From contig CAWAKF010000032.1 of assembly GCA_963782435.1 (NCBI GenBank), forward strand, positions 23,400 through 87,399: a DNA stretch of 64,000 nt, written 5' to 3'. Shown piece after piece: positions 1-44,270 of this stretch (positions are counted from its first letter, which is position 1; the number at the start of each line of letters is the position of its first letter). Position numbers and translations under genes: made by a program. The notes below the pieces were generated by a model. That model made no database searches. It was not told the DNA's origin and was given only the letters and a program-made list of their open reading frames with translations. The DNA comes from an uncultured delta proteobacterium (GTDB taxonomy: Bacteria; Desulfobacterota; RBG-13-43-22).

Positions 1-267
1 TTGGAGGCTATGAGTTGTGGAACGCCGGTCATCTCATCCAATTGCTCCTCAATCCCGGAAATTATAGGTTCGGCCGGTTTATTAGTGGACCCGACCAAAA
101 TCAAAGACCTGGCTGACCGTATCATTGAGTTGTTAAGTAATTCGGATCTGAGAAGACGTTTGAGTCAGTTGGGAATAAAACAGGCCAGCCGGTTTTCCTG
201 GATTGAAGCCGCTCGGCAAAGCCTCGATGTTTATCGATCGGTCGAGAAACATGAAAATTGTATTTGA
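1..267 (+). CDS. Glycosyltransferase family 1 (GT4), C-terminal fragment; 5' end lies outside the window
   Basis: ORF runs to the window edge. The C-terminal GT1 sugar-donor binding region (GTPVISSNCSSIPEIIG...) is typical of the GT-B fold. Confidence 0.7.
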   Translation: MEAMSCGTPVISSNCSSIPEIIGSAGLLVDPTKIKDLADRIIELLSNSDLRRRLSQLGIKQASRFSWIEAARQSLDVYRSVEKHENCI

Positions 268-1336
268 TGCTCGTGTCCTTGGGGGCCGGATGCACGGGAT
301 ATCCCGCTATTGCTTAAACCTGCTCCAACAGCTACTGGCCGAAGACCAGGGCCACGAATACCTCATCCTGACCGGTCATCCTCAAACTCCGGAGTTGTTC
401 AACCCGGCAGTTCCGGTCCGTTGGCTTCGAACCCGGGTCCCCCTTTACAGCGTTCAAGAACAATTCCTGATCCCTTTTCAAATACGAGAAGAAACATTTG
501 ATCTCTTCCATTCTCCGACTTATACCATCCCTCTCCGTTCTTCCTCCAAGGGGATTATGACCATTCATGACCTGATTCCTCTTGCTTTTCCTGAATATTT
601 TGATTTCAGGCATCGCCTTTTTTTTCGTTTTATTGTTCGACGGGCCATTTCCCGGTGTCTAAAGGTTTTTACCGTTTCCGAACAGTCTAAAAAGGATATT
701 CTTGAATTTTTTCAGGGTCCGCAAGAGCGAATAGTAATTACTCCTAACGGCCTGGATCCTCGGTGGGGACCAAAACCTTTGACTCCGGATTTTAAAGAAC
801 GGTATGGGTTGGATCCAAGCTATATTGTTTTTGTCGGAAACCCAAAACCGCACAAAAATTTTTCCCGGGTTTTGTCGGCCTTTGAATTGCTGGTAAAGGA
901 GGATCGTTATCCCGGTAAACTGGTGTCCATTGGATTGGAATACCGGGATCTATGTTCCGAAATAAGGGATCGGGTTGTGATCGTCCCCCACTGCAATGAT
1001 TTGGATCTGGGTCTGTTTTATTCAGGGGCCGATCTTTTGGCCGCCCCCTCCCTTTATGAAGGGTTCGGGCTTCCGGTCCTGGAGGCCATGACCTGCAGTT
1101 GCCCGGTCCTGATCGGCAACAAAGGGGCCTTGCCGGAAATTGCCGGGGATGCCGGTTTCCAAGTGAATCCTTATGATATCCGTGCTATAAAAGAGGGGAT
1201 GAAAGAAATCATTTTTCAACCTGATCTCCGCCAAAGAATGAAGGATCGGGGGATCAGGAGGTCCGGGGAATTTTCCTGGATAAAAACAGCCCAGATTGTG
1301 ATGGACACTTATAAATCTTTGGAAGGAAATGGGTAA
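251..1336 (+). CDS. Glycosyltransferase family 1
   Basis: GT4-type C-terminal EGFGLPVLEAM motif. I moved the start to the internal MKIVFDARVL ATG at 251, which overlaps the stop of the upstream GT by 17 nt. Confidence 0.75.
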   Translation: MKIVFDARVLGGRMHGISRYCLNLLQQLLAEDQGHEYLILTGHPQTPELFNPAVPVRWLRTRVPLYSVQEQFLIPFQIREETFDLFHSPTYTIPLRSSSKGIMTIHDLIPLAFPEYFDFRHRLFFRFIVRRAISRCLKVFTVSEQSKKDILEFFQGPQERIVITPNGLDPRWGPKPLTPDFKERYGLDPSYIVFVGNPKPHKNFSRVLSAFELLVKEDRYPGKLVSIGLEYRDLCSEIRDRVVIVPHCNDLDLGLFYSGADLLAAPSLYEGFGLPVLEAMTCSCPVLIGNKGALPEIAGDAGFQVNPYDIRAIKEGMKEIIFQPDLRQRMKDRGIRRSGEFSWIKTAQIVMDTYKSLEGNG

Positions 1337-1587
1337 ATTTTTAGTGCGAGAGGGACGTTCGGCGTTGAGCGCCTGCGAGGGGCAGAGGCGTTCGGCAAAA
1401 ACCTTTTTTCAAACTCTTTGGTGTCTAAATGGGGAGGAAGGTTCAATATCGGATAATAAATATCAACTGTCGAAAAATTCTCTTTACTAAGGAAAACCAA
1501 CAGGAGGAGAAAACTCGCAGTACTTATTTTACGCCGAACGCCGAACGCAATACACCGGGTTATAACGCCTAACTATAAAAAAAGCCG

Positions 1588-2763
1588 ATGACCGAACCTG
1601 TAAGTGAATATCAAAAAAAATTATCCTCCCTTCGGGTGGCTTTAGTCCATGACTGGCTGACCGGGATGAGGGGCGGCGAAAAATGCCTTGAAATCTTTTG
1701 CGAGATCTTTCCTCAGGCCGATCTTTTTACCCTGCTTCATGTCAAGGGTTCCGTTTCACCGATTATTGAAAACCACCGGATCCGGACTACCTGGGCCCAA
1801 CACCTTCCCGGAGTAGAAAAAAAGTATCGCCATTATCTCCCTTTTTTCCCTTTAGCCGTTCGAAATATTGATTTAAGAGGATATGACCTGGTTCTGTCCA
1901 GCAGTCATTGTGTGGCTAAGGGGGTTCGGGTGTATCCCCCGACTGTACACATCTCCTATGTTTTTACTCCTATTCGGTATGTCTGGGATATGTATGATAT
2001 TTATTTCGGCAAAGATTCCTCGGCCGGATTGTTGGTCCGAATGGTGATGCCCGCTGTGGCTGCCATGCTTCGTCGATGGGATGTCCGTACCAGTCAGAGA
2101 GTGGATTATCTTCTGGCTGATTCAGAAAATGTCCGCCGGAGAATTTTAAAATATTACCAGCGGGAGGCTGAGGTCATCCCGGTTCCGGTGGATACCGATC
2201 AGTTTGACTTGACTTTTGAACCCCAAGACTATTATTTAATGGTTTCAGCCTTGGCCCCATATAAACGTATTGATCTGGCTGTTCAGGCCTTTAATCGAAA
2301 CCAAAAACCCCTGGTGGTTGTCGGTACCGGCCCATTGATGGAAGCCTTACAAAACGAATCCGGTCCTAATATTTCCTGGCTGGGATGGCAGCCGGCGGAA
2401 AACTTAAAAAAACTGTATGGAGAATGCCGGGCTCTGATTTTTCCCGGGGAAGAAGATGCCGGCATTACCCCTTTGGAAGCCCAAGCCTCCGGTAGGCCGG
2501 TAGTTGCCTTTGGTCGCGGAGGGGCCTTGGAAACGATTGCGCCCTTGGAGGATTTTCTGGAGGGGCGAAAGGATTTTTTCAGCGGAGTCTTTTTCCCGGA
2601 ACAGACGGAAGCCTCCCTGGTGGAGGCCATTGAAAGGCTTGAGCAGCATGCCCATCTCTTAAACCCGTCCAAGATCCGGAGCCATGCCCTTCAGTTTGAT
2701 AGGGAGGTTTTTAAAGATAGAATCATTCAAACCGTCAAGGAAAAACTAAGAAAATCTAATTGA
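1588..2763 (+). CDS. Glycosyltransferase (GT1/GT4-like)
   Basis: N-terminal ALVHDWLTGMRGGEKCLE and C-terminal E(x7)E-like region GEEDAGITPLEAQASGRPVVAF. Sits in a polysaccharide cluster next to gmd. Confidence 0.7.
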   Translation: MTEPVSEYQKKLSSLRVALVHDWLTGMRGGEKCLEIFCEIFPQADLFTLLHVKGSVSPIIENHRIRTTWAQHLPGVEKKYRHYLPFFPLAVRNIDLRGYDLVLSSSHCVAKGVRVYPPTVHISYVFTPIRYVWDMYDIYFGKDSSAGLLVRMVMPAVAAMLRRWDVRTSQRVDYLLADSENVRRRILKYYQREAEVIPVPVDTDQFDLTFEPQDYYLMVSALAPYKRIDLAVQAFNRNQKPLVVVGTGPLMEALQNESGPNISWLGWQPAENLKKLYGECRALIFPGEEDAGITPLEAQASGRPVVAFGRGGALETIAPLEDFLEGRKDFFSGVFFPEQTEASLVEAIERLEQHAHLLNPSKIRSHALQFDREVFKDRIIQTVKEKLRKSN

Positions 2764-2913
2764 AAAGTCTCTGGTATGGGTTGCGAGTTACGAGTGGCGG
2801 TTTAAAGAATTGTACTCCCGACTGTCCCAACCCGTAACCCACAACACGCAACAAAAATTGATAAAGAAAGAATCCTCAAAATCAATATGGATCCCTTAAA
2901 TGGAAAGTGATCG

Positions 2914-3888
2914 ATGAAAAAACGTGCCTTGATTACCGGGATAACCGGTCAGGATGGGAGTTATTTGGCCGAGTTACTCATTTCGAAGGGTTATGAGGTC
3001 CATGGTATTGTCCGGCGGATGGCTCTGGAAGATCCCCTGCACCGTCTCTGGCGGCTTCGGCATATACTGGACAAAATTTCTCTTCATGCTGGCTCCATGG
3101 AAAGTTATCCCAGCATCTTCAACGTGATCGAAACGGTTGGACCTGACGAATGTTATCATCTGGCCGCCCAGAGTTTCGTCAGTTATTCCTTTGAAGATGA
3201 ATTTTCGACCATTAATACCAACATCAATGGGACCCATTATCTGCTGTCCTCTATAAAACGAAAGGCCCCCCACTGCCGTTTTTATTTTGCCGCCTCCAGC
3301 GAGACCTTCGGAAAGGTGCGGGAGACCCCACAGGATGAAAATACGCCTTTTCATCCCCGTTCCCCTTACGGCATTTCCAAAGTGGCTGGGTTTGAACTGA
3401 CCCGGAATTACCGGGAAGCCTATGACCTGCATGCCTCCTGCGGTATTCTATTCAATCATGAATCTCCCCGCCGGGGACATGAATTCGTCACCCGTAAGAT
3501 TACCTCTCATGCCGCTTTGATCAAACTTGGCAAAGAGAAACGGATCAAACTAGGAAACATTCAGGCCAAACGGGATTGGGGGCATGCCTGGGATTTTGTC
3601 CAAGCCATGTGGTTGATGCTCCAGCAAGACAAACCGGATGACTATGTCATTGCTACCGGACAATGTCACACCGTTGAAGAATTCCTGCAAAATTCCTTTG
3701 CCTTACTGGAATTGGATTATCGGAATTACCTGGATATTGACCCGAACCTTTACCGGCCTTCGGAAGTTATGGCTTTGATGGGTAATTATTCCAAGGCGCA
3801 AAGGACATTTGGCTGGCAGCCGATAACTCCCTTTGAGGAACTCATCCGGGAAATGGTGGAAAGTGATTTGAAATTATATTCGACATGA
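2914..3888 (+). CDS. gmd: GDP-mannose 4,6-dehydratase
   Basis: Canonical Gmd N-terminus ALITGITGQDGSYLAELLISKGYEVHGI with the SDR Rossmann motif and the catalytic YxxxK region (SPYGISKV). Confidence 0.9.
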   Translation: MKKRALITGITGQDGSYLAELLISKGYEVHGIVRRMALEDPLHRLWRLRHILDKISLHAGSMESYPSIFNVIETVGPDECYHLAAQSFVSYSFEDEFSTINTNINGTHYLLSSIKRKAPHCRFYFAASSETFGKVRETPQDENTPFHPRSPYGISKVAGFELTRNYREAYDLHASCGILFNHESPRRGHEFVTRKITSHAALIKLGKEKRIKLGNIQAKRDWGHAWDFVQAMWLMLQQDKPDDYVIATGQCHTVEEFLQNSFALLELDYRNYLDIDPNLYRPSEVMALMGNYSKAQRTFGWQPITPFEELIREMVESDLKLYST

Positions 3889-3989
3889 AGGTAGATAGGC
3901 TGAACGAATAGGCTAAAGGTAGATAAGCCGAAGGCTGAAGAAAGAAGAGGGGGATACCTCGTTGGGAATTTCCCTTCGGTCTTCAGCTT

Positions 3990-4026
3990 TCGGCCTAAGG
4001 CCCTCCAATCTAACGGCCTTATTTTT
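3990..4026 (+). terminator. Rho-independent terminator candidate downstream of gmd
   Basis: aaggcc-N12-ggcctt stem followed by atttttaaaaa. It is preceded by a longer imperfect hairpin (gccgaaggctgaaga...tcttcagctttcggc). Confidence 0.4.
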
Positions 4027-4043
4027 AAAAAGGAGATACACTC

Positions 4044-4277
4044 ATGGAAACAATATCCGTTTATTCGTTACCCTCCTGACCGGAGTGCCTGGCTACGAAA
4101 GAGTTCTTTCGTCAAAAAGGGATTGCCTTTGAGGAATTCGATCTTTCCAAGGATCAAGCCGCGGTTTCGAAAATGCTAAAATTGACCCGCCAAAAGAGGG
4201 TTCCGGTCATTCAAAAAGGGGAAAAATTCATCGTCGGGTTTAACTCGGAGGACATTGAGAAATTAATTGACTTTTAG
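4044..4277 (+). CDS. Glutaredoxin-like selenoprotein (77 aa). The in-frame TGA at 4077-4079 is read as selenocysteine in a U-P-E-C redox motif.
   Basis: AGGAGA RBS sits 8 nt upstream of the ATG. Translation METISVYSLPS-U-PECLATKEFFRQKGIAFEEFDLSKDQAAVSKMLKLTRQKRVPVIQKGEKFIVGF matches the glutaredoxin fold, with the TGA exactly where the first Cys of CPYC would be. A 7-bp hairpin with AGUU loop lies 16 nt downstream of the UGA as a SECIS candidate. Absent from the ORF track because the TGA splits it. Confidence 0.6.
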
Positions 4278-4344
4278 AACTGGAAGCATATAAAATATAC
4301 AGATTCAATATGATCCCTGGTTGAAATGAAAATGGACAAAGAAT

Positions 4345-4395
4345 AGTCCTCCCTTGGCCGGGACAGGGAGGAATGCTGATTTTTCTTTTGGTGTG
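4345..4395 (+). terminator. Rho-independent terminator candidate after the glutaredoxin gene
   Basis: cctccct-N10-agggagg stem followed by a T-rich tract (gatttttcttttgg). Confidence 0.4.
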
Positions 4396-4443
4396 AGACA
4401 CGAGATAAGAGAATAGATCGACCTTCCTTCCTTTTGATTTCCG

Positions 4444-4453
4444 CCCCCCCCCC
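4444..4453. repeat. Homopolymeric C10 tract about 50 nt upstream of the diguanylate cyclase start
   Basis: Read directly from the sequence: ccg-cccccccccc-tcacac. Confidence 0.6.
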
Positions 4454-4501
4454 TCACACTTAGTATTGCTTAATACCTTTATTTAAGGGGAGGACAGCCC
4501 T

Positions 4502-5875
4502 TTGAATATTTTCCGCCTGTTTCCTTTCTTTACCGGAATCCGAAAAAAAGCAGAATTAAAAACCGACCCTACTATTCCGGATCATTCCGAGGAGTCCCTG
4601 CGGCGATCCGAAGATCGGTATCGTTCTATCCTGACCAGCATGGAAGATGGCTATTTTGAAGTCGATCTGACCGGCAACATGCTTTTCAGCAATGAAGCCA
4701 ATGACCGCATTTTCGGCTATGCGCCGGGAGAGCCGATAAGGGTAAATTACCGTGAATATACGGATCCGGAAACTGCAAAAAAGTTATTTGAAATCTATAA
4801 TCGGGTTTACCGGACCAATGTGCCTCAAAAAGGATTTGCGTGGGAAGTAATTAAAAGAGACGGGACAAAGGTTTATGTGGAAACCTCGGTCGCCTTAATC
4901 CTGGATTCCAACCACCAAAAGATCGGCTTTCGAGGGATTCTCCGGGATATCACCCGCCAGAAGCAGACGGAAGCGGCCCTGCGGCAATCGGAAGAAAGAT
5001 ATCGCACCATCTTAGAAAATATTGAAGACGGGTATTTTGAGGTCGATCTTACCGGTAATATGATTTTCTGTAATGAAGCACACTGCCGAATTTATGGTTA
5101 TTCCCGAGACGAGTTGAATGGTTTAAATTACCGGGAATATACGGATGAGGGAAACAGCAAAAAAGTATATGAAGTTTTCAACAAGGTTTATCAATCCGGG
5201 TTACCGGAAAAAGTTCTTGATTTTGAATTGATCCGAAAGGATGGAACCAAGATCTATGTGGAAACTTCGATCTCCTTGATCCTGGATTCCGACCAACAAA
5301 AGATCGGTTTTCGTGGGATTCTCCGGGATGCAACTCGTCGGAAACAGACCGAAGAGGCCTTGAAGGCCCTTTCCTTAATTGATGACCTGACCGGGCTTTA
5401 TAATCGGAGAGGATTTTTGACCTTGGCTGAGCAGGAGTTAAAGATCGCCCAACGTATGGAAAGGGGAATATTTTTGCTGTTCGCCGACGTGGATGGCCTG
5501 AAAGAGATTAATGACACCTTCGGACATTTGGAAGGGGATCAGGCTCTAATTGAGATCGCCCGTATTATCAATGAGAATTTTCGCGATCCGGATATCATTG
5601 CCCGTATTGGAGGGGATGAGTTTGTGATTCTGGCCATAGAGGGGATCTCCGAAGGCGGTCCGGAGTTACTCATAGAAAGATTGCAAGAGAATCTTCAGAG
5701 TTATAATGATGGGGAGTCAAACAGGAAGTATCGGTTGTCGCTCAGTATTGGGGCTGTTGCCTATGACCCGGAGCACCCGGTGTACATTGAGACGCTTGTG
5801 TCCCAGGCCGATAAAAACATGTACCAGGAAAAACAGGAGAAAAAGAAAAACATCCAAATGAGATTAGAATTTTAA
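4502..5875 (+). CDS. Diguanylate cyclase with two tandem-duplicated PAS domains (PAS-PAS-GGDEF)
   Basis: Motif RIGGDEFVIL. Two PAS units of about 115 aa and about 65% identity (EDGYFEVDLTGNM...GFRGILRD.TR.KQTE). TTG start with a GGAGGA RBS. Confidence 0.85.
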   Translation: MNIFRLFPFFTGIRKKAELKTDPTIPDHSEESLRRSEDRYRSILTSMEDGYFEVDLTGNMLFSNEANDRIFGYAPGEPIRVNYREYTDPETAKKLFEIYNRVYRTNVPQKGFAWEVIKRDGTKVYVETSVALILDSNHQKIGFRGILRDITRQKQTEAALRQSEERYRTILENIEDGYFEVDLTGNMIFCNEAHCRIYGYSRDELNGLNYREYTDEGNSKKVYEVFNKVYQSGLPEKVLDFELIRKDGTKIYVETSISLILDSDQQKIGFRGILRDATRRKQTEEALKALSLIDDLTGLYNRRGFLTLAEQELKIAQRMERGIFLLFADVDGLKEINDTFGHLEGDQALIEIARIINENFRDPDIIARIGGDEFVILAIEGISEGGPELLIERLQENLQSYNDGESNRKYRLSLSIGAVAYDPEHPVYIETLVSQADKNMYQEKQEKKKNIQMRLEF

Positions 5876-5900
5876 TAATAATTCCTCAATTCCTCAATTC

Positions 5901-8156
5901 TTAAATCTTAAATCTCCGCAGACGCAGAGAATTACTCACCACAGAAACCGAACTGAAGGCCATGGCCGCCGAAGCCAGGATCGGATTCAGCAAGATTCCC
6001 CAAATAGGGTAGAGTATTCCGGCAGCAATGGGAATTCCCAGAACATTGTAAAAAAAAGCCCAGAAGAGATTTTGCCGGATGGTCCGGATGGTCTGCCTAG
6101 ACAGTTTTATGGCTGTCAGAATGATCCGAAGATCATCGCGGATCAGAGTAATATCAGAGGCTTCCATCGCCACATCCGTTCCTGTGCCGATGGCGATGCC
6201 CACATCGGCCTGGGCCAGGGCCGGGGCGTCGTTGATCCCGTCTCCCACCATGGCCACTTTTTTCCCCTCCGACTGGAGGATTTTGATCTGGGCCGTCTTG
6301 TCCTGGGGCAGAACCTCGGCAATAACCCGGTCTAATTGGAGTTGGCGACCAATAGCCTGAGCCGTCTGCTGATTGTCTCCAGTGAGCATTACCACTTCCA
6401 GACCCATGCTTTTCAAACCAGACACCGCTTCCGGGGAATGTTCCTTGAGTGTATCGGCCAGGGCCATGACCCCGATAACTTTTTTGTCTCGGGCCACAAA
6501 CATCAAGGTCTTCCCCTGATTGGCCAGGGCCTCGGCAGAGACTTGAACGGAGGTCAAGTCCAGACCTTGGGACTCCATGAGTCGTTTGTTCCCGATATGG
6601 ATTTCCTGCCCTTCCCATTTTGCGGTTACCCCTTGCCCCGCAAGGGCTTCGAAATCCTCTACTCCCGCCAGGGTCAGCCCCTCTTCTTTGGCCTTTCGGA
6701 CAACGGCTTCCCCAAGGGGGTGTTCGGAATTTCTTTCCACCGATGCGGCTATGGTCAGAATTGTACTGGTCTCGATACCCTCTATGGAAACAATGTCGGT
6801 AACCGCCAACTCCCCTCGGGTTAACGTTCCTGTCTTATCAAAAACAATAGTGGTCAATTTATGGATCGACTCGAGACTTTCTCCGCCTTTGATCAGGATG
6901 CCATGTTCCGCCCCTTTGCCGGTTCCTACCATGATGGCTGTCGGGGTGGCCAGACCCAGGGCGCAGGGGCAGGCGATGATCATCACCGCCACAAAATTAA
7001 GTAAAGCAAAGGTCAGCGTGGGGGCAGGTCCCCAAAAATACCAGATGATAAAGGTCAGTACAGCAATCCCCATAACGATGGGTACAAAAACACCGGCCAC
7101 CTGGTCGGCCAGCCGCTGAATCGGGGCCTTGCTTCCCTGGGCCTGTTCTACCAGAAGAATGATTTGAGCCAGGGCGGTCTCTTCGCCGATACGGGTGGCT
7201 TCAAAGGTGAAACTCCCGTTCTTGTTCAGGGTGGCCCCGATCACCTCATCGCCGGGATTTTTATCCACCGGCAGACTTTCACCGGTAAGCATGGATTCAT
7301 CCACGGCTGAACGGCCTTCTTTAATCCGACCGTCCACCGGAATCTTCTCCCCTGGTCGAACAATTATAAGATCCCCTTTATGTACCTCCTCTACTGGAAT
7401 ATCCGTTTCCTGGTTATCCCGGATGACCCGGGCCGTCTTTGGGGCCAGGCCGATCAACTTGCGTATGGCCTCGGAGGTCTGTCCTTTGGCCCGGGCTTCG
7501 AGTAACCGCCCCAATAGGATCAAGGCAATGATCATGGCCGCGCTGTCAAAATAGATTTCAGCTTTCACGCCGCTATTATGAAAAAGGGAGGGGAAAAAGG
7601 TAACCACCGAAGAATAGATATAGGCGGATAATGTCCCTACGGCGATCAGGGTGTTCATATCGGCACTGCCATGGCGGGCCGCACCCCAGGCCCCGGTCAA
7701 AAACTGCTTACCGGCCCAGAACTGAACCGGGGTGGTCAGGACAAAAAGGATATAAAAAAGAATATAATGCGGGACATCCCGAAGATAGGGGATGTAGTGA
7801 GGCATGGAAAGGACCATGATCAGGACACCGAAAATTACACTGAAGATAAACTTTTTTTTCAACAAGGCCAGGTCTCTTTCCCGTTCCTCCCGCTCCCGAT
7901 CACGAAGCTCGGCCCGGGCCAGACCGCGGAACTGATAACCGGCGTCCTCTATGGCCTTTCTGAATTTTTCCAGATCAACCTTCTTGGGATCGTAGGTCAC
8001 CTGGGCCTTTTCAGTGGCAAAATTGACGGCCGCCTGTTCTACTCCTTCCAGTCTGCCCAGGGCCTTTTCCACGCGGACCACACAGGCGGCACAACTCATG
8101 CCGCCCACCGACAGGGCCGTCTGTTCCAAATCTTTATTATTTTCTTGTGGTTCCAT
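5901..8156 (-). CDS. copA: Copper-translocating P-type ATPase
   Basis: N-terminal HMA domain [18 protein letters not shown] motif ([13 protein letters not shown]), DKTGTLT phosphorylation site and GDGINDAP hinge. Confidence 0.9.
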
Positions 8157-12754: not shown

Positions 12755-14560
12755 TTAAAAGAGAATTTTTGATCCGGTCATCAAAAAGTGCTCGACGATT
12801 GGACCTAAGGCCAGGGCCGGAAGAAAGGTCAAGGCCCCAACGATTACGATTGTTCCAACTAAGACCAAAGTAAAAGTCAAACCCCAGACAGGAAAGCTCC
12901 CTCCTGATGGGGGAACGATTTTTTTGCCGGCCAGACTCCCGGCCAGGGCCATGACCGGGACCAGCATAATAAACCGTCCGAAAAGCATGGCTAGCCCCAG
13001 GGTGGTGTTGTACCAGATTGTATTCCCGCTCAGTCCGGCGAAGGCGCTGCCGTTATTTCCGGTAGCCGAGGAAAAGGCATAGAGTATCTCACTCAACCCG
13101 TGGGGGCCGCCATTATTCAAGCCGGCCAATCCCCATTTCCTGACCAAGGCCCAGGCCGAGAAGCCGAGAATACTGAAAATTAATATCATCAGGGCCAGGA
13201 CACTCACTTTTACATCGTAGGGTTCAATCTTTTTACCAAGATACTCGGGAGTGCGGCCGACCATTAAACCGGTCAAAAATACGGCCAGAATAACAAATAT
13301 CAGCATCCCATAAAGCCCGGCACCGACTCCCCCGAAAACAACCTCACCCAACTGGATATTGAACAGAGGGATCAATCCCCCCAAGGGGGTAAAGGAATCG
13401 TGCAGGGCATTAACGGCCCCGCAAGAGGCATCGGTGGTGATCGAGGCAAAAAGGGCGGAGTTAAATATTCCGAAACGAACTTCTTTCCCTTCCATATTCC
13501 CCATGATCGGATCTATACCAAGGGCTTGCAGACGTGGATTACCGGCCGATTCCGCCCACCAGCAGACCAAAAAAGTACAAAGGAGGAGGATGGTCATGGC
13601 GCTCCAGATGGCCCAGCCATGTTTCTGATTTTTGACCATACGGCCCAGGTAATAGGTGAGACCGCTGGGGATGAGAAAGATGGCCAGCATTTGTAAAAAG
13701 TTGGATAAGGGGGTCGGGTTCTCATAAGGGTGGGAGGCGTTGGCGTTGAAAAAACCACCCCCGTTGGTTCCCAACATCTTAATGGCCACCTGTGAAGCTA
13801 CCGGACCCTGGGGAAGGATCTGTTGCTCGACCTTCTGCTCTTTCATCAACGGATTGCCCTGTCCATCTTTGAGTTCCTGCCCGGTAGGATCTTTTTGGGG
13901 TACCTGGATGGTCAAGGGTTCGACGAGCTTAGCCGTTTCATAGGATTTAAAGTTCTGGATGATACCCTGTGAAGTAAGCAAGACAGCCAATACCAGGCTG
14001 ATAGGCAGAAGTAGATAAAGGTTGCCCCGAATTAAATCGACCCAGAAATTACCAATCGTTTTGGCTGAATGACGGGCAATACTGCGGACCAATGCCCCGG
14101 CCGCGCCCAGTCCTACAGCGGCGGAGGCAAAGTTATGAAAAACAAGACCGACCATCTGCGAGAAATAAGAGAGTGTTGATTCCCCACCATAATTCTGCCA
14201 ATTGGTGTTGGTGGTAAAACTGACCGCGGTATTAAAAGCCAAGTCGGCAGGAACCGGTCCGAATCCTTGGGGATTGAGCGGCAGCAGATGCTGAAGACGG
14301 AGAACCCCGTAGGTAAACAATAACCCGACAAGACTGAATAGAAGCAAAGAAAAAGTATAGCTTTTCCAGTCCTGCTCTTTTTTCGGGTCCAAACCCAGGA
14401 ACCGATACAAAACCCTTTCTACGGGTCTGAGCACCGGGTCAAAAAAGGTTTTGCCTTCGGGGTTCAGCACTTGAACCAGATAAATCCCTATGGGTTTGGT
14501 TAATGCCAGCAGAACCAGCATATAAAGGGTGAGTTGAATCCATCCATAAAGGTCCGTCAT
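12755..14560 (-). CDS. kdpA: Potassium-transporting ATPase subunit A
   Basis: 601-aa polytopic protein with a KdpA-like N-terminus MTDLYGWIQLTLYMLVLLALTKPIGIYL. Position in the operon between kdpF and kdpB. Confidence 0.9.
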   Translation of the reverse strand: MTDLYGWIQLTLYMLVLLALTKPIGIYLVQVLNPEGKTFFDPVLRPVERVLYRFLGLDPKKEQDWKSYTFSLLLFSLVGLLFTYGVLRLQHLLPLNPQGFGPVPADLAFNTAVSFTTNTNWQNYGGESTLSYFSQMVGLVFHNFASAAVGLGAAGALVRSIARHSAKTIGNFWVDLIRGNLYLLLPISLVLAVLLTSQGIIQNFKSYETAKLVEPLTIQVPQKDPTGQELKDGQGNPLMKEQKVEQQILPQGPVASQVAIKMLGTNGGGFFNANASHPYENPTPLSNFLQMLAIFLIPSGLTYYLGRMVKNQKHGWAIWSAMTILLLCTFLVCWWAESAGNPRLQALGIDPIMGNMEGKEVRFGIFNSALFASITTDASCGAVNALHDSFTPLGGLIPLFNIQLGEVVFGGVGAGLYGMLIFVILAVFLTGLMVGRTPEYLGKKIEPYDVKVSVLALMILIFSILGFSAWALVRKWGLAGLNNGGPHGLSEILYAFSSATGNNGSAFAGLSGNTIWYNTTLGLAMLFGRFIMLVPVMALAGSLAGKKIVPPSGGSFPVWGLTFTLVLVGTIVIVGALTFLPALALGPIVEHFLMTGSKILF

Positions 14561-14572
14561 TTTACCCTCGCA

Positions 14573-14656
14573 TCAAAATTTTTCAGGTCGAAGGACAGTT
14601 ATAAAGAGATAAATGATCAGGATAAGCCCGATAATCAATCCAATGATATCTCCCAT
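14573..14656 (-). CDS. kdpF: KdpF small subunit (27 aa)
   Basis: MGDIIGLIIGLILIIYLFITVLRPEKF, immediately upstream of kdpA. Resembles E. coli KdpF (...GYLVYALINAEAF). Too short for the ORF track. Confidence 0.6.
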   Translation of the reverse strand: MGDIIGLIIGLILIIYLFITVLRPEKF

Positions 14657-14743: not shown

Positions 14744-16584
14744 GAATTATCCTCTTGCCTCAAAGTCTGATCGACCGTTCGCAGAGTAAAGGTAAAGGTG
14801 CTGCCTTTCCCTTCCTCACTTTCCGCGCTAACTGTTCCCCCGTGAGCCTCGATAATCTCTTTTACAATAGCCAGTCCTAGTCCGGCCCCTGAATTTTTTT
14901 CCTGGTTAGGGACTCGAAAGAATTGCTCGAAAATCCTGGGGAGATATTGCTTCGGGATCCCCTTTCCCGTGTCCGAGATGGAAAAACGGACCTCATTCTC
15001 TTCCGCTTTAGCTGAAAAGGTAATTTTACCGCCGGGCTGGGTGTACTTAAGGGAATTGGAAAGAAGATTGCCAAAAACATAATAAATTCTGGTCGGATCA
15101 GCCCAGACCTCGGGGAGATCTCCCGGTATGTCGACACTCAAAGTGACGCCCTGGTCGTGGGCCGCCCTCCAAAAAGGTTCCAGTGCCTCCATTTGAAGAG
15201 AATTGGGGGAAATTGTCCGGAGTTCCATCTTAGTCTTGCCGGATTCTATGCGGCTGATATCCAGCAGGTTGTTGAGAATATTGTGCAGCCGGTCGCTGTC
15301 TTCCCGGGCCGCCAAAAGAAGATCGACCTGTTGTTCCGTCAAGGGGCCTACTTTTTCTTCCAACAGGAGGTGGATGGCCATACGAACGGAAGTGAGAGGC
15401 GTTTTAAGCTGATGGGACACGGTGGAAATCATTCCTTTTTTTAGTTCATCCTGCTGTCTGAGTTGGGTGACGTCCTGTAAGATCAGTACAAACCCGGTGG
15501 GTTGTCTTTCACTATCCATGATGGGTATCGCCTCCGGGCGAAAGAAGTGCTCTTCTCCTTTGATAAAATGTTGGATAACCCTTTGGTTGCCATTGGGCTC
15601 CGTTGTGCGGTTCAGCTTAAGGACCTCCTGTACAAACCCGTTAACCCACTCCAGGGGCAAATCTTTGATAAAGGTATTAGGCTGGAGTCCAAAAGAATTT
15701 TTAGCCGCTTCTGTGGCTATTTCCACCTTTCCCTCCAGGTCGATAACCGCAACGGCCTCAGGCAGACTATCGAAAGCCTGTTGGGTGGCCCGTTGGATTC
15801 GAAACAATTTTGAACGGTTGGAACGGCGAAATTCCCGGATGCTGGCCGCCATTTCATTGAAGGCGTCGGACAGGTGTCCGATTTCATCGTGGGAACCACT
15901 TGTTACCACCAGGTTAAGATTTCCCTTTTTGATTTCATTCGCCGACTCAATCAGGTGATTGATCGGACGTAAGACCCATTTCCCTATAAAGAAGATAAAC
16001 CCAACGGCAATGATCGTTCCCGTCAATAAAAGAATATACATCCCTTTTTTCGCTGCTGCGGCATTATCGCGGGCTTGATTATTAGCCTGGGTCATATTTT
16101 GTTGATTCAATTGAAGGATTTCATCGGCCGTGTTTTTAATGATATAGAATAAAGGAAGAAGTCGGCTGAAATAAAGTTGGCGGCGAATGATAACTGAACG
16201 GGTTCCATTCTCCATCCCCTTAAGCATCATTTTGTACTGGCCAAATTGTTGCTCCAGGAGGTTTGCCTTATCGCCTTCTCCGGGAAGGGTAATGTTATTC
16301 AGCTCAGTTCGGAGGGTTTTTTCAAAGACCTGTTCATTTTTGCCGATCAGGTTTTTCCCTTTTTCCAAATATCCCTGAAGAATAAAAAGGGTACCGCTGT
16401 CTATGCGTTCTAAGGCTTCTTTCATTTCCTGGCAGGCAATGACGCTCCGGTAGTTTTCTCGGAGAATGACATCGATGGACTCCCCCAGTTTGCTGAGGTG
16501 GGTAATACTTTGAACCCCGATCACCAGGATAATGGCCAGGAGTCCCCCTAACCCAAGAGAAAGCTTTTGACGCAACCCCCACAT
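14740..16584 (-). CDS. Sensor histidine kinase (periplasmic domain, HAMP, PAS, HisKA, HATPase_c); NtrY-like
   Basis: Two N-terminal TM helices, HAMP, PAS, H-box SHQLKTPLTSV, and a C-terminal ATPase with GLGLAIVKEIIEAHGG. Confidence 0.85.
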   Translation of the reverse strand: MWGLRQKLSLGLGGLLAIILVIGVQSITHLSKLGESIDVILRENYRSVIACQEMKEALERIDSGTLFILQGYLEKGKNLIGKNEQVFEKTLRTELNNITLPGEGDKANLLEQQFGQYKMMLKGMENGTRSVIIRRQLYFSRLLPLFYIIKNTADEILQLNQQNMTQANNQARDNAAAAKKGMYILLLTGTIIAVGFIFFIGKWVLRPINHLIESANEIKKGNLNLVVTSGSHDEIGHLSDAFNEMAASIREFRRSNRSKLFRIQRATQQAFDSLPEAVAVIDLEGKVEIATEAAKNSFGLQPNTFIKDLPLEWVNGFVQEVLKLNRTTEPNGNQRVIQHFIKGEEHFFRPEAIPIMDSERQPTGFVLILQDVTQLRQQDELKKGMISTVSHQLKTPLTSVRMAIHLLLEEKVGPLTEQQVDLLLAAREDSDRLHNILNNLLDISRIESGKTKMELRTISPNSLQMEALEPFWRAAHDQGVTLSVDIPGDLPEVWADPTRIYYVFGNLLSNSLKYTQPGGKITFSAKAEENEVRFSISDTGKGIPKQYLPRIFEQFFRVPNQEKNSGAGLGLAIVKEIIEAHGGTVSAESEEGKGSTFTFTLRTVDQTLRQEDNS

Positions 16585-16609
16585 TTGTTTGCCTCCTTAT
16601 GATTTTATT

Positions 16610-16626
16610 TTGCAAACTCCAGGCCA
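16610..16626 (-). promoter_or_regulatory. Sigma-54 (-24/-12) promoter candidate upstream of the histidine kinase gene
   Basis: Minus strand reads TGGCCTGGAGTTTGCAA. GG and GC are spaced as in the TGGCACG-N4-TTGCW consensus. It lies about 26 nt upstream of the kinase start codon. Confidence 0.5.
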
Positions 16627-16779
16627 AAGATTTCTACAACCAACTTGTTGTAAAAATAGAGTTTTTAAATTTAGTGATATTGACCGGATTGCATTTCTCA
16701 AATGAAGACCCTAAAATGTCTTGAAAATTGCAAGGGAGAGAATAACGGGTTTCTATAGGAAGACAGGAGATTAGGAGTC

Positions 16780-18120
16780 TTATATCCCGTATTTTTTACG
16801 ACGCCGCCAAAGGGTGGCCTGGTCGATCCCCAGGATGTCGGCGGCCTCTTGAAGGGATTTGGTGAAGGCTAAGATTCTTCGGATATGTTGTTCTTCGATT
16901 TTTTCCAGGGTGACCGGATCACCGATGGTTGGGAGGGATTCGTTCGGGAGCAGGTTGCCGGGAAGGCATTCGATCCCGACATGCTCGGTTCGGCAAAAGA
17001 TAGCCGCCCGCTCAATAATATTACTTAATTCCCGGACATTGCCCGGCCAAGTATATTGCTTGAGTGCCTGGACCGCTTCCGGGGTAAACCCCAAAAAAGA
17101 GCGATGATTGCTCCGGCCATAGAAAATCAGTAATTGTTCTGCAAGGGCTATCACATCGTCCGGACGTTCACGCAAGGGAGGAATTTCAATCTGAATCACA
17201 TTGAGTCGAAAAAAGAGATCTTCCCGAAAACGACCTTCCTTGACCGCTTTTTCCAAATCCCAATTTGTAGCTGTAATAAGACGAACATCGGCTTTACGAG
17301 TTGAGGAGTCACCAACCCGTTCATATTCCCTTTCCTGGATAAAACGCAGCAGTTTGGGTTGAAGGGCCAGGGGCAAATCACCGATCTCATCCAGAAGGAG
17401 TGTTCCTCCCTGGCAGGCGGCAATACGACCGGGGTTGTCGCGGATGGCCCCGGTGAAAGCCCCTTTGATATGTCCGAATAGCTCGCTTTCGAGCAATTCC
17501 GAAGAAAACGATGGGCAGGAAATGATACCGAGGGGTTTGGCCGCCCTGTTGCTCCAGGAATGAATGGCCTTGGCCAGGACGGTTTTGCCGGTTCCGCTTT
17601 CTCCACGAAGAAGAATCGTGGCCTCGGATGGAGCAGCCTGCCGGGCCAGATTGACCGCTCGCTGCATCGTTGGGCTGGTACTATCCAGTCTAATCTCGGG
17701 ATTGGAGCGTCCCAGGTCATCCTGCAAGGCGGCCACTTTTTGCTCCAGGGTGCGTATCTGAAACGTTTTTTGGACGGCCAGTTTGACCTGGGTGGGAGTG
17801 AAAGGTTTGGGAATATAGTCCGTAGCGCCACGACGCATGGCCTCAACCGCCGTGTCAATGGAGACATAGGCGGTGATAACAATGATTTTGAGCCAGGGCG
17901 ACGCAGCCAGTAAGGCTGGAATCAAATCAAGGCCGTCCTCGGTGCCGAGACGCAAATCGACAAAAGCCAGATCAAAAGACCGGTGTGCGGCTTCAATCAG
18001 GGCATCCTGAAAATTGCTGACAGCGATAACCTTATGGCCTTCGGTCTCCAGGCAAACCGATAAGGTCTTACGGATATTGACTTCGTCATCCACAATTAGA
18101 ATTTGTAAGGCCTGCATCAT
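16780..18120 (-). CDS. Sigma-54-dependent response regulator (REC + AAA+ with GAFTGA + Fis-type HTH); NtrC/NtrX family
   Basis: Motifs [21 protein letters not shown], and a C-terminal HTH. I chose the start at 18120, whose ATG overlaps the der stop as ATGA. Confidence 0.85.
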
Positions 18121-19436
18121 GACTGCTTTTCCCGTTTCCTGAAAATAATCTTGATCGGGCACAGGGTGAATCTGAAATGTTCCCGGAGCTGATTAGTCAG
18201 ATAGCGCTGGTAGGAGAAATGGATGTTTTCCGGATAATTGGCAAAGAAGATAAAGGTGGGGGGTTTGATCTCCACCTGGGCGGCAAAATAAATCTTGACC
18301 CGCTGCCCGCCCCGTAAAGGCAGGGAGTGTCCGGCTAGGATGGTCTTTAAGGCCTGGTTCAAGGGGCCGGTGTCCACTCGGCGGGTGTACTGACGGTAGA
18401 CTTCATGCACGGTATTCAGGAGTTTTTCCCTTCCCAGGCCGGTTTTGGCCGAGAGAGGCAGGATGGGGGCAAAGGAAAGATATTTGAGATGGTAACGGAT
18501 TTCTTCCAGAAATTGTTTTTTGTTTTTCAAATTTTTCTCTATCAGGTCCCATTTGTTCACTCCGACAATAACCCCCTTGCCTTTTTCATAGGCCAGACCG
18601 GCGATGCGGGCATCCTGATCGGTTACACCCTGTGTGGCATCTAAAAGTATGACAGTCAGATCGCTTTGATCAATTCCTTTAATGGCCCCGAGAACAGAAA
18701 ATTTTTCCAACCGCTGGGCGATCCGGGCCTTACGGCGGATTCCGGCCGTATCGATCAGGAGATATCCCCGGTTTTTGTATTCAAAGGGGGTGTCTATGAC
18801 ATCCCGTGTCGTTCCCGGTTCGGAGCTCACCAAGACCCGTTCAAACCCCAAGATGGAATTGACCAGAGAGGATTTGCCCACGTTAGGGCGGCCGATAACG
18901 GTCAGGCGGACCCGTTTTTCTTCCCCCACCGGTCCTGTCATGGGTGGCAAAAGGGAGGAGATGGTTTCCATTAACGCCGATACCCCATTGCCATGAAGAG
19001 CGGAAAGAGGGAAGGGGGTATCCATCCCGAGACGGTGATAGTCTGCCAGGCTTTCCCCTATTTTGGGATTATCAATTTTATTGACTGTAAAAAGGACCGG
19101 TTTGGAGGTTTTCCGTAAACGATGGATGACCTGTTCGTCGGCCGGGGTCAAACCTTTTTGACCGTCTCCCACAAAGACGATCAGGTCGGCTTCCCCCAGG
19201 GCCATTTCAATCTGTTCTCTGAGACCGGTATCCATTTGGCTTTTTTTGTCCCATTCAAAACCGCCGGTATCGACCAGGGTGATGGGTTTGCCTTCCCAGA
19301 CAACCTCCTGGTAATTACGGTCCCGGGTGACCCCGGGCTGATCGTCCACTATGGCCTTTCGTTTTCGAATCAGGCGATTAAAGAGGGTGGACTTGCCCAC
19401 ATTGGGCGCACCGACGATGGCAACGATGAAACTCAT
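18117..19436 (-). CDS. der: Ribosome-associated GTPase Der (EngA), with two GTPase domains and a KH-like C-terminus
   Basis: Two G-domains, each with a P-loop: GAPNVGKSTL in the first and GRPNVGKSSL in the second. Confidence 0.9.
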   Translation of the reverse strand: MSFIVAIVGAPNVGKSTLFNRLIRKRKAIVDDQPGVTRDRNYQEVVWEGKPITLVDTGGFEWDKKSQMDTGLREQIEMALGEADLIVFVGDGQKGLTPADEQVIHRLRKTSKPVLFTVNKIDNPKIGESLADYHRLGMDTPFPLSALHGNGVSALMETISSLLPPMTGPVGEEKRVRLTVIGRPNVGKSSLVNSILGFERVLVSSEPGTTRDVIDTPFEYKNRGYLLIDTAGIRRKARIAQRLEKFSVLGAIKGIDQSDLTVILLDATQGVTDQDARIAGLAYEKGKGVIVGVNKWDLIEKNLKNKKQFLEEIRYHLKYLSFAPILPLSAKTGLGREKLLNTVHEVYRQYTRRVDTGPLNQALKTILAGHSLPLRGGQRVKIYFAAQVEIKPPTFIFFANYPENIHFSYQRYLTNQLREHFRFTLCPIKIIFRKREKQS

Positions 19437-19767
19437 AAATGAATCCTTTTGGACTGTTTTGACCTAATTTTAAATTACTTAAAATTGATTTTAACACAGG
19501 TTGGTTTATACTGCAAATTACATTGGAATGGAGGGTGCCCTAGGAAACCTTTCCGAGAGAGGCCGTTTTTTTTGGTTGACAACCCTTATGAAAGGTTTAA
19601 ATTACCCTCCGTCATCCCCAATCTTGCAGGATGACCGGCGAATTCTCCGAAACCAAGCCGGAGGAGCGGGGGACCCGATCAATCGGGGCGAATCCGTTTA
19701 TACGGTAGGGCACTATTCACCTCCTGCCCGAGCCCGTCAGCTAACCTCGCAGCCATGAGGGGGTAAT

Positions 19768-21626
19768 TTGATAAAGATCGTTGTTCTAACGGTTCTCAAT
19801 GCCGGGCTGATTGTACTGTTTGGTGCCCTTTTGAGACGGCGCAATCTTCTCTCCTATCATCAGGGGGGGAGGGTCTGGCTCACCTATTTGTCCATAGGGG
19901 TCATCACCCTAATGGACGAGTTTACCTCCATCTTTTACGTCCCGGCGGAGGCCTACCGTTTTATCGGTTTAAGCGCCATACCCTTTATCGTCATCACCAG
20001 CCTGTTGATCCGTTTTGTCAGCACCCGCCTTACGGAAATTGCCGAAATCCTCGAGCATCATCAACTCATCGGAGGCGGGGTCTACTCTTTTCTTATCTGG
20101 TCTTGGGGCCGATGATGTCTTTTGTGGCCGTATCCTCGATTATGGTGGATTACATCCTGACCGCCTGTATCTCCGCGGTCAGTGCGGTCTCCAATGCCAC
20201 CTCCTTTTTCCCGATCCCTCAATCAACGGCCTTGATTCTGGTGCTGGCCATCATCTGGGCCGTGGCCGGTTTGAATATTTCCGGGATCAGGGAAAATGCC
20301 CGGTTCACCTTCATGATCTTTATCGGTGCTGCTTTTGTCATTCTTAATTTGATCGTCTCCGGTATCCTTAATCTGGACCAAGGTTCTTTTGGCCAAATGC
20401 ACCTGGCGACATCTCAGGCCTTTAAACACGTCAACACCGGGTCGATGCTGGGGGATTACGGCCATGTTATTTCAAGTATTGCTTTTTGCATCCTGGCCTA
20501 CTCCGGGGTTGAATCTGTGCTCCAAACGGCCGGGTTTGTGCGCAGTTGGAAAGAAATCCGTAAGGCCTACTGGTTTCTGGCCTTGACTGTGGGGGTGGTG
20601 ACCCCTTTAGTGACCATCCTGGTCCTATCGACCCGGATCGATTTCAAGGCCCATGAAGGGGACCTGATTACCCATTATGCCACCTTGCTAAATGGGATCC
20701 CTTTTGGCTTGGTGGTAGGTGCCCTGGCCAGCTTTACCCTGACTCTAGCCGTGAATACCGCCTTTGTGGCCTCCAGCGAGCTCATGGAACGGGTTGCCGA
20801 CCGCTACGGTTTTCATTGGCTGATCGCCACCAATCGGCGACAATCTCTGTATCGTATCCATCTGTCCAGTGCCGTTTTCTTTTCTTTTATTGTCCTTCTC
20901 ACCATGGGGAGTCAGGCGCAACTGGCTAACATGTATGCCCTGGGGCTTTTGGCTTCCTTTTGTATCAACATGGGTTCCCTTATTATTTACCGGTATTTTC
21001 AAGGTAAGGGGGATGGGATCACCTATTCCACCAGCCGCTTCGGAACTCTGATTCTCTGGGTCATTCTGGTCAGTTGTTTTATTTTTCTGGCTTTTGACAA
21101 ACCCCAGGCGACCATGCTTTGGGCCACGGTGACCGGAGCGATGCTCCTTCTTGGATTTTGGGTGGCTAAAAAACGTTCTCCGGAGACCAAAGAGATCGAA
21201 CAGGGGGAAAATGAAATGGGGATGCTTCTTTATCTGGCCGAGTCCGAGGAGCGGGATATTCATCTCTTTTTCAGAAGATCGGAGGAAACCGATGAGACCA
21301 AGGCCAAAGGGAATGAGGCCTATATTTCTTTTTATTCCCCTCGGGTGGGTGGGCTACCCCCTAAGACGGTGCCCAATCAATTTCGCTTTCCTTTGTCCAA
21401 AATCAGTCTTTTTCATCGTATCATGAGCCTGCTCCGGGTGGTCGAATATGAAATGGGCGATCGATCCGTTACGGTTCATTTTGGCTGGCCCATGTCTTCC
21501 TGGTGGGAGCGGTTATCCATCGGGGTCATGGTTTTCAATCTGATGAAGTTACCGAGACTTTTTCCTCAATTCGAATTCGAAATTTATTATAAAAAGCGGC
21601 CCTTCCTTTCAAAAAAGGGAGATTAA
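19768..21626 (+). pseudogene. APC-superfamily transporter with a long cytoplasmic C-terminal domain. It is split by a -1 frameshift in a GGGG run near 20105. Possible sequencing error.
   Basis: ORF 19768..20115 is TM1-3, and ORF 20103..21626 continues the same transporter. Adding one G at tcttggggccg restores ...IWSWGPMMSFVAV. Confidence 0.6.
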
Positions 21627-42744: not shown

Positions 42745-44270
42745 TTTTTTGACAAGAAAATGAACCGAGCGGCTTTTTAGGTCTGCCCAATGGGTATGGG
42801 ATTTTCACTTTTGATCCACAAATGATAAAAATTAAGAGCCTGCCAGGCAGCTTGGGTAATTTTGAGGGTGGTTCTATCCGCATGGCGAATAATCTTTCCA
42901 GCCACATCAAGTATTTTTCGTCTCAAGGTAGTAGCGTAGCTGCTCACCCCGACTACCGGCGCACAAACATCTTCTTTAAAGGCCTCATAAATAAAAAAAC
43001 CTATCACCATAGTGAAATAAAAGGCCGCATTTTGATGAAATCGTTTAAACGGAAGCTGTTGACTGCCAAAATCTTTCAAGGCCCGGTTAACCAACTCATC
43101 TCCCCCGCGATCATGATAAGATTCTACAATGCCCCCAGGGGTCAACATCTTGCCCATTCCAGCCTCTTCCAGCCCCTTATCCAGTTCGGTCTCTCCTCCC
43201 AAATTGGTGTAGATTATCGTATCCGGACGGGCAAAGTTCAGAAGCATCTGTCTGTCTTTATAAAGAGGCCGGCAAAAAATCACTCGGCGGGCTTGATCCC
43301 AACTGTTCCGCTGGTCCATAAATTCCGTATACTCCCAGACCTGGTTCCCATTCTTATGGGAGCCCCAACACGAATGATCCATCTGGCCTACCCGCACTTT
43401 GATATCCTCGTAGAGCTTCCCGCCGCAGATATACCCCACCTTCAGCGATTCAAAAACCTTGAAAATCTTCTGGTCAAAAAAGCCACTATCCAATCGAATA
43501 ATAATCGGCACATCTTGGCGATAGTCCTTCCGGATAAAAGTCACCATACGACGGACCATCTTCTCGACATCCGTTCCATGATTAGAGTGTTTGTCCCCAC
43601 TACGGAAAAGGGCATCCACGATAAATCGACTCCAGGTCATCTGCAGGGGTTGAAACCCTTTTTCCTTCTTATAGGTCGGTTTAACTCCTTCCCGTTTCTC
43701 CGCCTCATCATTGTCCATTACCATCGTATCTATACCCAGAATGATCACCAATGGCTTCACTATTTGAAGCCGCCATCCAAAAAGCCTAAGCAACACTTGG
43801 CGAAACAAATGGGTCCAGTGAACCAAGAGGGATTGATAAAATCTCTTGACCGAATGCGAAGAAAGCATATGGTCGCTATCGGTCTCAATGGTCCTAGCAT
43901 ATCCCTCATCATTCTTAAGACTATCAAAGTAAACCAAATGTCGACTGGTCCCATCCATCAAAAAACAGAACATTTGCTTAAAAATCTCTGTCAGGGCTTG
44001 CCCTTTGCAACTCTTTCGGAGAGGGCCAAAAAGCTGCTCAATATAGGGCAACAGGGCAATGTTTCTCAAATAGCGAACATACAAAGTCAAGCCCGCTCGA
44101 CTCGTCATAACATTTCCTGTTATTCCAACAGCATCAATTTTTCGGTTGCTTTTACATCCGTCCGTGCTATTATTTTTCACGTTTCCTCCCACCCAATGGG
44201 TTCCTCGGTTATCAAGAGGTTGTTTTCCGTTCTCTTGTTATACCAAATAGTTGCCCATTTGGGTGGGTTT
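42745..44270 (-). mobile_element. IS1380-family (IS4-like DDE) insertion sequence
   Basis: 471-aa transposase at 42777..44192. Imperfect terminal repeats share acaagaRaa: ttgacaagaaaatgaacc on the left, and ggtataacaagagaacgg in reverse complement on the right. Confidence 0.55.
42777..44192 (-). CDS. IS1380-family transposase (DDE)
   Basis: Length and motifs (RLDSGFF..., C-terminal AAFYFTMV) fit IS1380/IS4-like transposases. Confidence 0.6.
   Translation of the reverse strand: MGGNVKNNSTDGCKSNRKIDAVGITGNVMTSRAGLTLYVRYLRNIALLPYIEQLFGPLRKSCKGQALTEIFKQMFCFLMDGTSRHLVYFDSLKNDEGYARTIETDSDHMLSSHSVKRFYQSLLVHWTHLFRQVLLRLFGWRLQIVKPLVIILGIDTMVMDNDEAEKREGVKPTYKKEKGFQPLQMTWSRFIVDALFRSGDKHSNHGTDVEKMVRRMVTFIRKDYRQDVPIIIRLDSGFFDQKIFKVFESLKVGYICGGKLYEDIKVRVGQMDHSCWGSHKNGNQVWEYTEFMDQRNSWDQARRVIFCRPLYKDRQMLLNFARPDTIIYTNLGGETELDKGLEEAGMGKMLTPGGIVESYHDRGGDELVNRALKDFGSQQLPFKRFHQNAAFYFTMVIGFFIYEAFKEDVCAPVVGVSSYATTLRRKILDVAGKIIRHADRTTLKITQAAWQALNFYHLWIKSENPIPIGQT

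Follow-up and report, generated by a model that had tools for sequence, protein, structure and literature searches.

A predicted selenocysteine-containing, YruB-like glutaredoxin from uncultured Thermodesulfobacteriota

Results

A glutaredoxin-like gene with an in-frame UGA

Positions 4044-4277 of the window (by which we mean the whole 64-kb stretch of DNA that was analyzed) contain a frame that resembles a small glutaredoxin and is interrupted by a single TGA. Glycosyltransferase genes and the gene for GDP-mannose 4,6-dehydratase (gmd) lie upstream, while the gene for a PAS-PAS-GGDEF protein and, on the opposite strand, copA lie downstream. The gene and its features are:

4030-4035, + strand: Shine-Dalgarno-like AAGGAG, read off the sequence, with an 8-nt spacer to the ATG
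4044-4277, + strand: predicted gene for a glutaredoxin-like selenoprotein of 77 residues, from the translation, PF00462, and the orthologue alignment
4077-4079, + strand: in-frame TGA, codon 12, predicted to encode selenocysteine (Sec) as the attacking residue of U-P-E-C; found in 31/31 sequences
4086-4088, + strand: TGC, encoding Cys15, the predicted resolving cysteine of UxxC; Cys in 31/31 sequences
4095-4112, + strand: SECIS-type hairpin ACGAAAG/AGUU/CUUUCGU (5' arm 4095-4101, loop AGUU 4102-4105, 3' arm 4106-4112), from pairing, covariation, frozen synonymous sites, and the fit to the bacterial SECIS (bSECIS) consensus
4200-4205, + strand: Val53-Pro54, the VP of the thioredoxin fold and presumably the usual cis-proline site; invariant in the alignment

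The frame starts with ATG at 4044-4046 and ends, after 77 codons, with TAG at 4275-4277. It reads METISVYSLPS, then the TGA, then PECLATKEFFRQKGIAFEEFDLSKDQAAVSKMLKLTRQKRVPVIQKGEKFIVGFNSEDIEKLIDF and the final stop. The TGA is the only internal stop, and the codons that follow it are CCG GAG TGC, so reading it as Sec gives U-P-E-C. The frame, its 77 codons, and its ribosome-binding site are as originally predicted from the DNA alone. GGAG-type motifs are found at the same distance from the ATG in most of the orthologues that we describe below.

Standard ORF callers were also predicted to miss this gene. The mechanical list of ORFs for the window has just a 34-amino-acid ORF (4173-4277) within this frame, so ORF callers do overlook it, and the public records of its relatives are either truncated or have tryptophan at the UGA site. 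In the window, the first in-frame ATG, GTG, or TTG on the 3' side of the UGA is the codon for Met44.

The product resembles YruB-type glutaredoxins

With the UGA read as cysteine, the protein matches Pfam's Glutaredoxin family (PF00462) with E = 1.4e-14 and 54.5 bits, as compared to a cut-off of 22.9 bits, and the match covers the entire profile (1-60 of 60). The best match among the NCBIfam models is to TIGR02196 (GlrX_YruB), which is the nearest family, although the score of 79.3 bits is below NCBI's cut-off of 88.55. The score for NF041212 (Uxx_star) is 60.8 bits (cut-off 66), and the other Uxx-star models, NF041114, NF041211, and NF047338, give 38.8, 49.8, and 44.4 bits (cut-offs 72, 100, and 97). 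The NrdH-redoxin model TIGR02194 gives 49.7 bits (cut-off 85.75). Because the GlrX_YruB and Uxx_star scores are under threshold, the protein falls in no curated equivalog.

Among solved structures, the best matches by sequence are 3zij and 3zit, which are a 78-amino-acid "thioredoxin" with CPPC (for 3zij, E = 1.8e-12 over residues 1-76). We also found matches to 7c10 (CPHC), 3ic4, and several NrdH-redoxins, and weaker matches to 4tr0 (E = 3.4e-5) and 1fov. In every one of these homologs, the residue opposite the UGA is the first Cys of CxxC. Both the YruB-type proteins and the PDB homologs have a VP that aligns with Val53-Pro54. From the family alignment, which is shallow, AlphaFold2 gave a model with low confidence (pLDDT 59.6), and we used it for the order of secondary structure elements alone; this order, β-α-β-α-β-β-α, matches the fold. 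These results bear out the original prediction of a glutaredoxin fold with the UGA at the first active-site cysteine, in the context S-U-P-E-C.

The UGA is conserved in all full-length orthologues

To find orthologous loci, we scanned one genome per species (185,579 species representatives) as well as JGI metagenomes. We found 30 full-length orthologues, which are 57-86% identical at the amino acid level and align over their full length. All 30 are from MAGs of uncultured Thermodesulfobacteriota or "delta proteobacterium" or from metagenomes. TGA is present at codon 12 of the window's gene and of every full-length orthologue (31/31). The surrounding motif is MEE-I-x-V-Y-S-L-P-[SAT] on the 5' side of the TGA and P-E/G-C on the 3' side. 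The codon for Cys15 varies among the 31 sequences, with TGC in 16 and TGT in 15. Three remoter homologs (41-42% identity, e.g. from Turneriella; L015, L033, and L034) have TGC, within CPYC, instead of TGA.

A protein search gave 23 close relatives with 70-86% identity (P0001-P0023). These either begin right after the UGA site (M/L/V-A-T-K-E-F-F...) or have W there, and none of the 23 has Cys. We also searched 1.84 billion representative sequences exhaustively with HMMER. This returned just three representatives of the clade at the level of 50% identity (one with W and two truncated). Outside of the clade, scores drop from 176 bits to no more than 88 bits. The matches that are full-length start at about 73 bits and are Cys-bearing proteins of the YruB type ("YSTPTCxxC"). 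No Cys form within the clade was found among the 23 proteins, in the genome scan, or in the HMMER search. The clade appears to stand in a Sec/Cys relation to its neighbors, without a Cys form of its own. Under the original prediction's own test, it would be refuted if orthologues had a sense codon here and were unlike it in fold; we found the opposite, as the close orthologues all have TGA and the distant ones have Cys.

Two other copies look degenerate. In L035 (142-365), the TGA and the hairpin are kept and there is a frameshift after codon 25. In L032 (605-835; protein P0024), only the C-terminal two-thirds is present, joined to unrelated upstream sequence, with no Sec codon or active site. 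These copies may be pseudogenes or assembly artefacts.

A conserved hairpin downstream of the UGA

A 7-bp hairpin with an AGUU loop, 16 nt past the UGA, was part of the original prediction. We confirmed it at 4095-4112. Its first base is the 16th nucleotide past the UGA, with 22 nt from the UGA to the loop, as expected for a SECIS. The hairpin is conserved, and its stem shows compensatory changes. In the ungapped alignment of the 31 sequences, 99% of the cells for the seven stem pairs are paired. Shifting the 3' partners by 1-3 columns reduces pairing to 42-63%, and none of 500 column shuffles reached the observed pairing or the observed covariation score. Three of the seven pairs show compensatory double changes: one varies among A-U, G-C, and G-U (with no A-C), another between C-G and U-A, and another between A-U and G-C.

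Two of these paired changes are coupled to changes in the protein. Lys19 is encoded by AAG where Phe22 is replaced by Leu (CUU), and Thr or Ala at position 18 is replaced by Val (GUG) together with the replacement of Arg23 by His (CAC). Also, codons 18, 20, 21, and 22 have no synonymous variation at all, while the codons for the same amino acids vary freely elsewhere in the gene. Part of the complementarity of the hairpin, namely AAA with UUU (Lys-Phe), comes for free with the conserved KEFF peptide. However, Cys homologs with the same AKEFFR peptide use other codons and do not form a stable hairpin (-0.2 to -2.1 kcal/mol). The hairpin's predicted folding energy is -6.3 kcal/mol in the window and ranges from -3.7 to -10.4 kcal/mol in the orthologues, with a mean of -7.0 kcal/mol. 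The fold of the window's sequence considered alone (4070-4135) is unexceptional (z = -1.35), so the support for the hairpin is comparative and does not come from this fold alone.

In the consensus for the bacterial SECIS, the loop can be 3-9 nt and the stem 4-16 bp, the loop is 16-37 nt from the UGA, and a G in its first two positions is followed by G or U (PMC13188914). The hairpin fits this on every count: the loop is 4 nt, the stem is 7 bp, the distance is 22 nt, and the second position of the loop is a G, followed by a U. As for the bSECIS energy threshold of -7.5 kcal/mol, the hairpin alone is at -6.3 kcal/mol, and the segment from the UGA to +45 is at -10.5 kcal/mol, with an additional 4-bp helix that lacks covariation. 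We also set aside the lower helices that RNAalifold proposed (columns 5-8/61-64 and 10-12/20-22), as these have no covariation. An Rfam E-value search of 3900-4500 gave no match at the SECIS site; its only matches were chance, miRNA-like ones to the hairpin upstream of the gene. By these comparative measures, the hairpin looks like a functional RNA element.

How the UGA is read

We considered whether the UGA might be read as a standard amino acid (Trp, Cys, Gly, or Arg), either by near-cognate or suppressor decoding or in a deviant genetic code, with the hairpin merely stimulating the readthrough. Some public orthologue calls do have W at the site, but the four database entries with W are from very short contigs (617-1103 bp). 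A deviant code is excluded: TGA is the ordinary stop codon for 25 of the 59 non-overlapping ORFs in the window, including gmd and der, whose ends match the ends of their family profiles, which rules out codes 4 and 25. Also, the site corresponds to the catalytic Cys of CxxC redoxins, and a Trp or Gly at this position would abolish activity. The hairpin matches the geometry and the loop of a SelB-type SECIS.

Another observation in favor of a standard amino acid is that we found no Sec machinery, whether in the window itself or in related loci that total 337 kb. ARAGORN identified no tRNA of any kind, and so no tRNA-Sec, either in the 64 kb of the window or in the 24 loci that were searched. 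Searching 20 of the larger ORFs in the window with NCBIfam and Pfam did not yield selA, selB, or selD, and neither did tblastn with E. coli's SelA, SelB, and SelD against the window and the 337 kb of related loci. Because the search spans just 64 kb of the host's genome, we view this absence as uninformative rather than negative. The lineage is rich in Sec: according to reviews, the Thermodesulfobacteriota are among the most selenoprotein-rich bacteria. Overall, decoding of the UGA as a standard amino acid seems improbable to us.

We give even less credence to the idea that the true product is a shorter protein of about 60-62 amino acids that begins past the UGA, with the 11 upstream codons being a leader peptide or untranslated. 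This is how public records describe much of the clade: entries in NCBI, JGI, and ENA are truncated at the N terminus, at varying pseudo-starts of the form M/V/L-A-T-K-E-F-F..., and are annotated as "glutaredoxin family protein" or "hypothetical". But neither the position nor the codon of this start is conserved, and we found no conserved restart codon on the 3' side of the UGA among the orthologues; the window has CTG-GCT-ACG there and no ATG, GTG, or TTG before Met44. The ribosome-binding site is in front of the ATG at 4044, not codon 16, and the shorter protein would lack strand β1 and the entire active site.

The 11 upstream codons are homologous to the β1 and active-site region of the Cys homologs, and they show selection at the amino acid level. 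Across the 31 sequences, the amino acids encoded by codons 7-10 (YSLP) are invariant and codon 6 encodes Val in 26. Each of codons 6-10 nevertheless uses 2-5 synonymous codons, with an entropy of 0.8-1.8 bits, which is comparable to the remainder of the gene. Since these codons are conserved in amino acid yet vary synonymously, the segment on the 5' side of the UGA is translated in frame, and it is under purifying selection at the protein level.

Finally, a small gene with one in-frame stop is what one would typically expect of a pseudogene, or of an assembly or sequencing error for TGC or TGT. But this explanation is effectively refuted, as is chance: the identical TGA occurs in all 30 full-length orthologues and in the window. 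These 31 sequences were assembled independently and differ from one another at most of their synonymous sites, and none of them has TGC, TGT, or TGG instead. The frame is intact to either side of the TGA, with purifying selection on the upstream codons, and an independent Logan assembly is 99.98% identical to the window over positions 1-6231.

Other candidates in the window

We found no convincing second selenoprotein gene in the window, either as a TGA read-through frame or from UxxC or CxxU motifs. A conservation-based scan for read-through across all of the loci was dominated by off-frame conservation. We rejected two candidates. At 12755-14656 (- strand), a 27-codon hydrophobic ORF that ends in TGA is followed, 12 nt on and in the same frame, by the start of kdpA; this is the usual kdpF-kdpA arrangement. 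At 19756-19758, the TGA aligns with Gly in a mechanical ORF of the related locus L001, and the sequence is probably a conserved leader.

This second TGA is in an amino-acid permease region (19501-21626, + strand) that is split into three ORFs, at 19501-19758 (ending in TGA), 19768-20115, and 20103-21626. The counterpart in L001 is a single open frame (16328-18205). The second and third of these ORFs overlap at 20103-20115, which points to a frameshift or a pseudogene. Elsewhere in the window, a DDE transposase at 42777-44192 (- strand; PF13701, E = 5e-36) indicates an insertion sequence; a long antisense ORF at 42822-44300 is probably spurious.

Comparison to known selenoproteins and redoxins

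Sec-containing glutaredoxin (Grx, PF00462, with UxxC) is an experimentally verified family of bacterial selenoproteins, with WP_010943784.1 from Geobacter sulfurreducens as a representative. UxxC glutaredoxins have also been reported in Moorella thermoacetica and in Alkaliphilus/Clostridium sp. OhILAs, and the protein from Clostridium sp. OhILAs has been characterized (Kim et al. 2011, cited in PMC13188914). The gene in the window shares with this family the Pfam domain, a predicted U-x-x-C with Sec in place of the N-terminal Cys, a SECIS-type element within the ORF, and a host from an anaerobic lineage. It differs in that the motif of its clade is UPEC and in that the clade has no known members with Cys. 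At the level of sequence, the gene qualifies as a putative member of the UxxC Sec-glutaredoxin family.

No cultured organism with a member of the clade turned up in the scan of 185,579 species representatives or in the protein search. Because all returns were from MAGs or metagenomes, we consider the clade to be distinct from the Geobacter/Clostridium group of orthologues, a distinction that is based on these search returns. As compared to the classical, glutathione-dependent Grx3, the clade is closer in sequence to redoxins of the size of YruB or NrdH (E = 3.4e-5 for 4tr0).

The YruB family (TIGR02196), whose members have Cys, is similar in length (about 75-85 amino acids) and in topology, has CxxC at the position of UPEC, and supplied the nearest full-length neighbors in the exhaustive search. 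In contrast to YruB, the clade has predicted Sec in place of Cys and RQKRVPVIQKG in place of YruB's GQMGVPV, and it forms a separate, tight cluster that is below the family's cut-off. The active sites also align with those of 3zij/3zit and of the NrdH-redoxins (4hs1, 4f2i, and 1r7h), but those proteins have Cys, not Sec. There is no nrdEF near the gene, whose neighbors are the glycosyltransferases, gmd, the PAS-GGDEF protein, and copA.

The UXX-star proteins and "Distant Grx-like protein 1" (NF041212 and NF041114) are, like the predicted product of this gene, small Grx/YruB-like proteins with an N-terminal Sec motif. UXX-star selenoproteins contain UxxT as well as a C-terminal U-x-x-stop and are found in metagenomic anaerobes. 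The gene in the window instead has a predicted UxxC motif, and it ends with ...LIDF-TAG, without a second TGA.

Gene neighborhood

Across the orthologous loci, the gene usually lies at the end of a cluster of genes on the same strand: a polysaccharide synthase/flippase, two GT4 glycosyltransferases, another glycosyltransferase, and, optionally, GDP-mannose dehydratase (203-4277 in the window). In 18 of about 24 loci that could be evaluated, the gene follows the same glycosyltransferase (the family of 1588-2763 in the window), with or without gmd in between. The spacer on the 5' side of the gene is often under 60 nt (155 nt in the window), and the genes downstream vary from locus to locus. That the predicted Sec-glutaredoxin is last in the cluster suggests an operon or a functional link. 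The loci with this cluster-terminal arrangement are:

L001-L005, L008-L014, L016, L020, L022, L025, and L028; L001 is the closest species representative to the window, with about 81-83% DNA identity

The spacer between gmd and the glutaredoxin-like gene (3889-4043) has its own structure. It contains a long, near-perfect hairpin at about 3927-3994, made of repeats of the GGCTGAAG / CTTCAGCC type (centroid -41 kcal/mol; z = -3.05 for the whole spacer). This is followed at 3995-4026 by a terminator-like stem, UAAGGCC...GGCCUUA, with UUUUU, which looks like the terminator of gmd. Similar (A)GGCTGAAGG / CCTTCAGCC(T) repeats are present in the same spacer of L001, L002, L003, L016, and L035, and other orthologues have spacers under 60 nt. 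We did not find the GGCTGAAG motif as a dispersed repeat elsewhere in the window.

Discussion

With a probability of about 0.88, we believe that 4044-4277 (+ strand) is a genuine gene for a Sec-decoded, glutaredoxin-like redoxin, with Sec predicted at the N-terminal residue of the active site. We are similarly confident that the product would be a thiol-selenol oxidoreductase with a thioredoxin fold and the size of YruB or NrdH.

If so, the UGA at 4077-4079 would be recoded during translation by the complex of SelB, GTP, and Sec-tRNA(Sec). The mRNA hairpin at 4095-4112, 22 nt downstream, would recruit SelB, with the AGUU loop presenting G-U. The redox center of the product would be U12-P-E-C15: the selenolate would attack a disulfide in the substrate (or a sulfenate or a mixed disulfide), Cys15 would resolve the intermediate to give an intramolecular selenenylsulfide, and an upstream reductase would then reduce the selenenylsulfide again. 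Small redoxins such as 3zij/3zit and the NrdH-redoxins are reduced by thioredoxin reductase, not by glutathione, and so, given the resemblance to NrdH- and YruB-like proteins, we think that a reductant of the thioredoxin-reductase type is more likely than glutathione.

The conserved gene order raises the question of what the protein might be for. The Sec-only, YruB-like clade could be a dedicated component of the polysaccharide-synthase/GT4/GT4/GT/(gmd) cluster and might provide a selenium-dependent redox step or switch for the synthesis of cell envelope or exopolysaccharide in uncultured Thermodesulfobacteriota. We consider this specific role to be unlikely and offer it as speculation. To our knowledge, no link between a selenoprotein and polysaccharide-synthesis clusters has been described so far.

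In the public records that we retrieved, the clade is mis-annotated: the proteins are truncated and lack the active site, or they have Trp at the site of the predicted Sec. Also, every NCBIfam model for selenoproteins scores below its cut-off. Dozens of annotations in MAGs would be corrected by a model built specifically for this clade.

The gene is very likely a Sec-only, YruB-like addition to an established family of UxxC selenoproteins. This is well supported and unsurprising, and it leaves our general knowledge of selenoproteins unchanged. The gene is also a clean natural case of co-evolution between a coding sequence and a predicted SECIS, as the changes from Phe to Leu and from Arg to His preserve the base pairs. 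For the host, a Sec-glutaredoxin gene would imply the ability to decode Sec, and the gene's conserved place behind a glycosyltransferase cluster is a testable lead.
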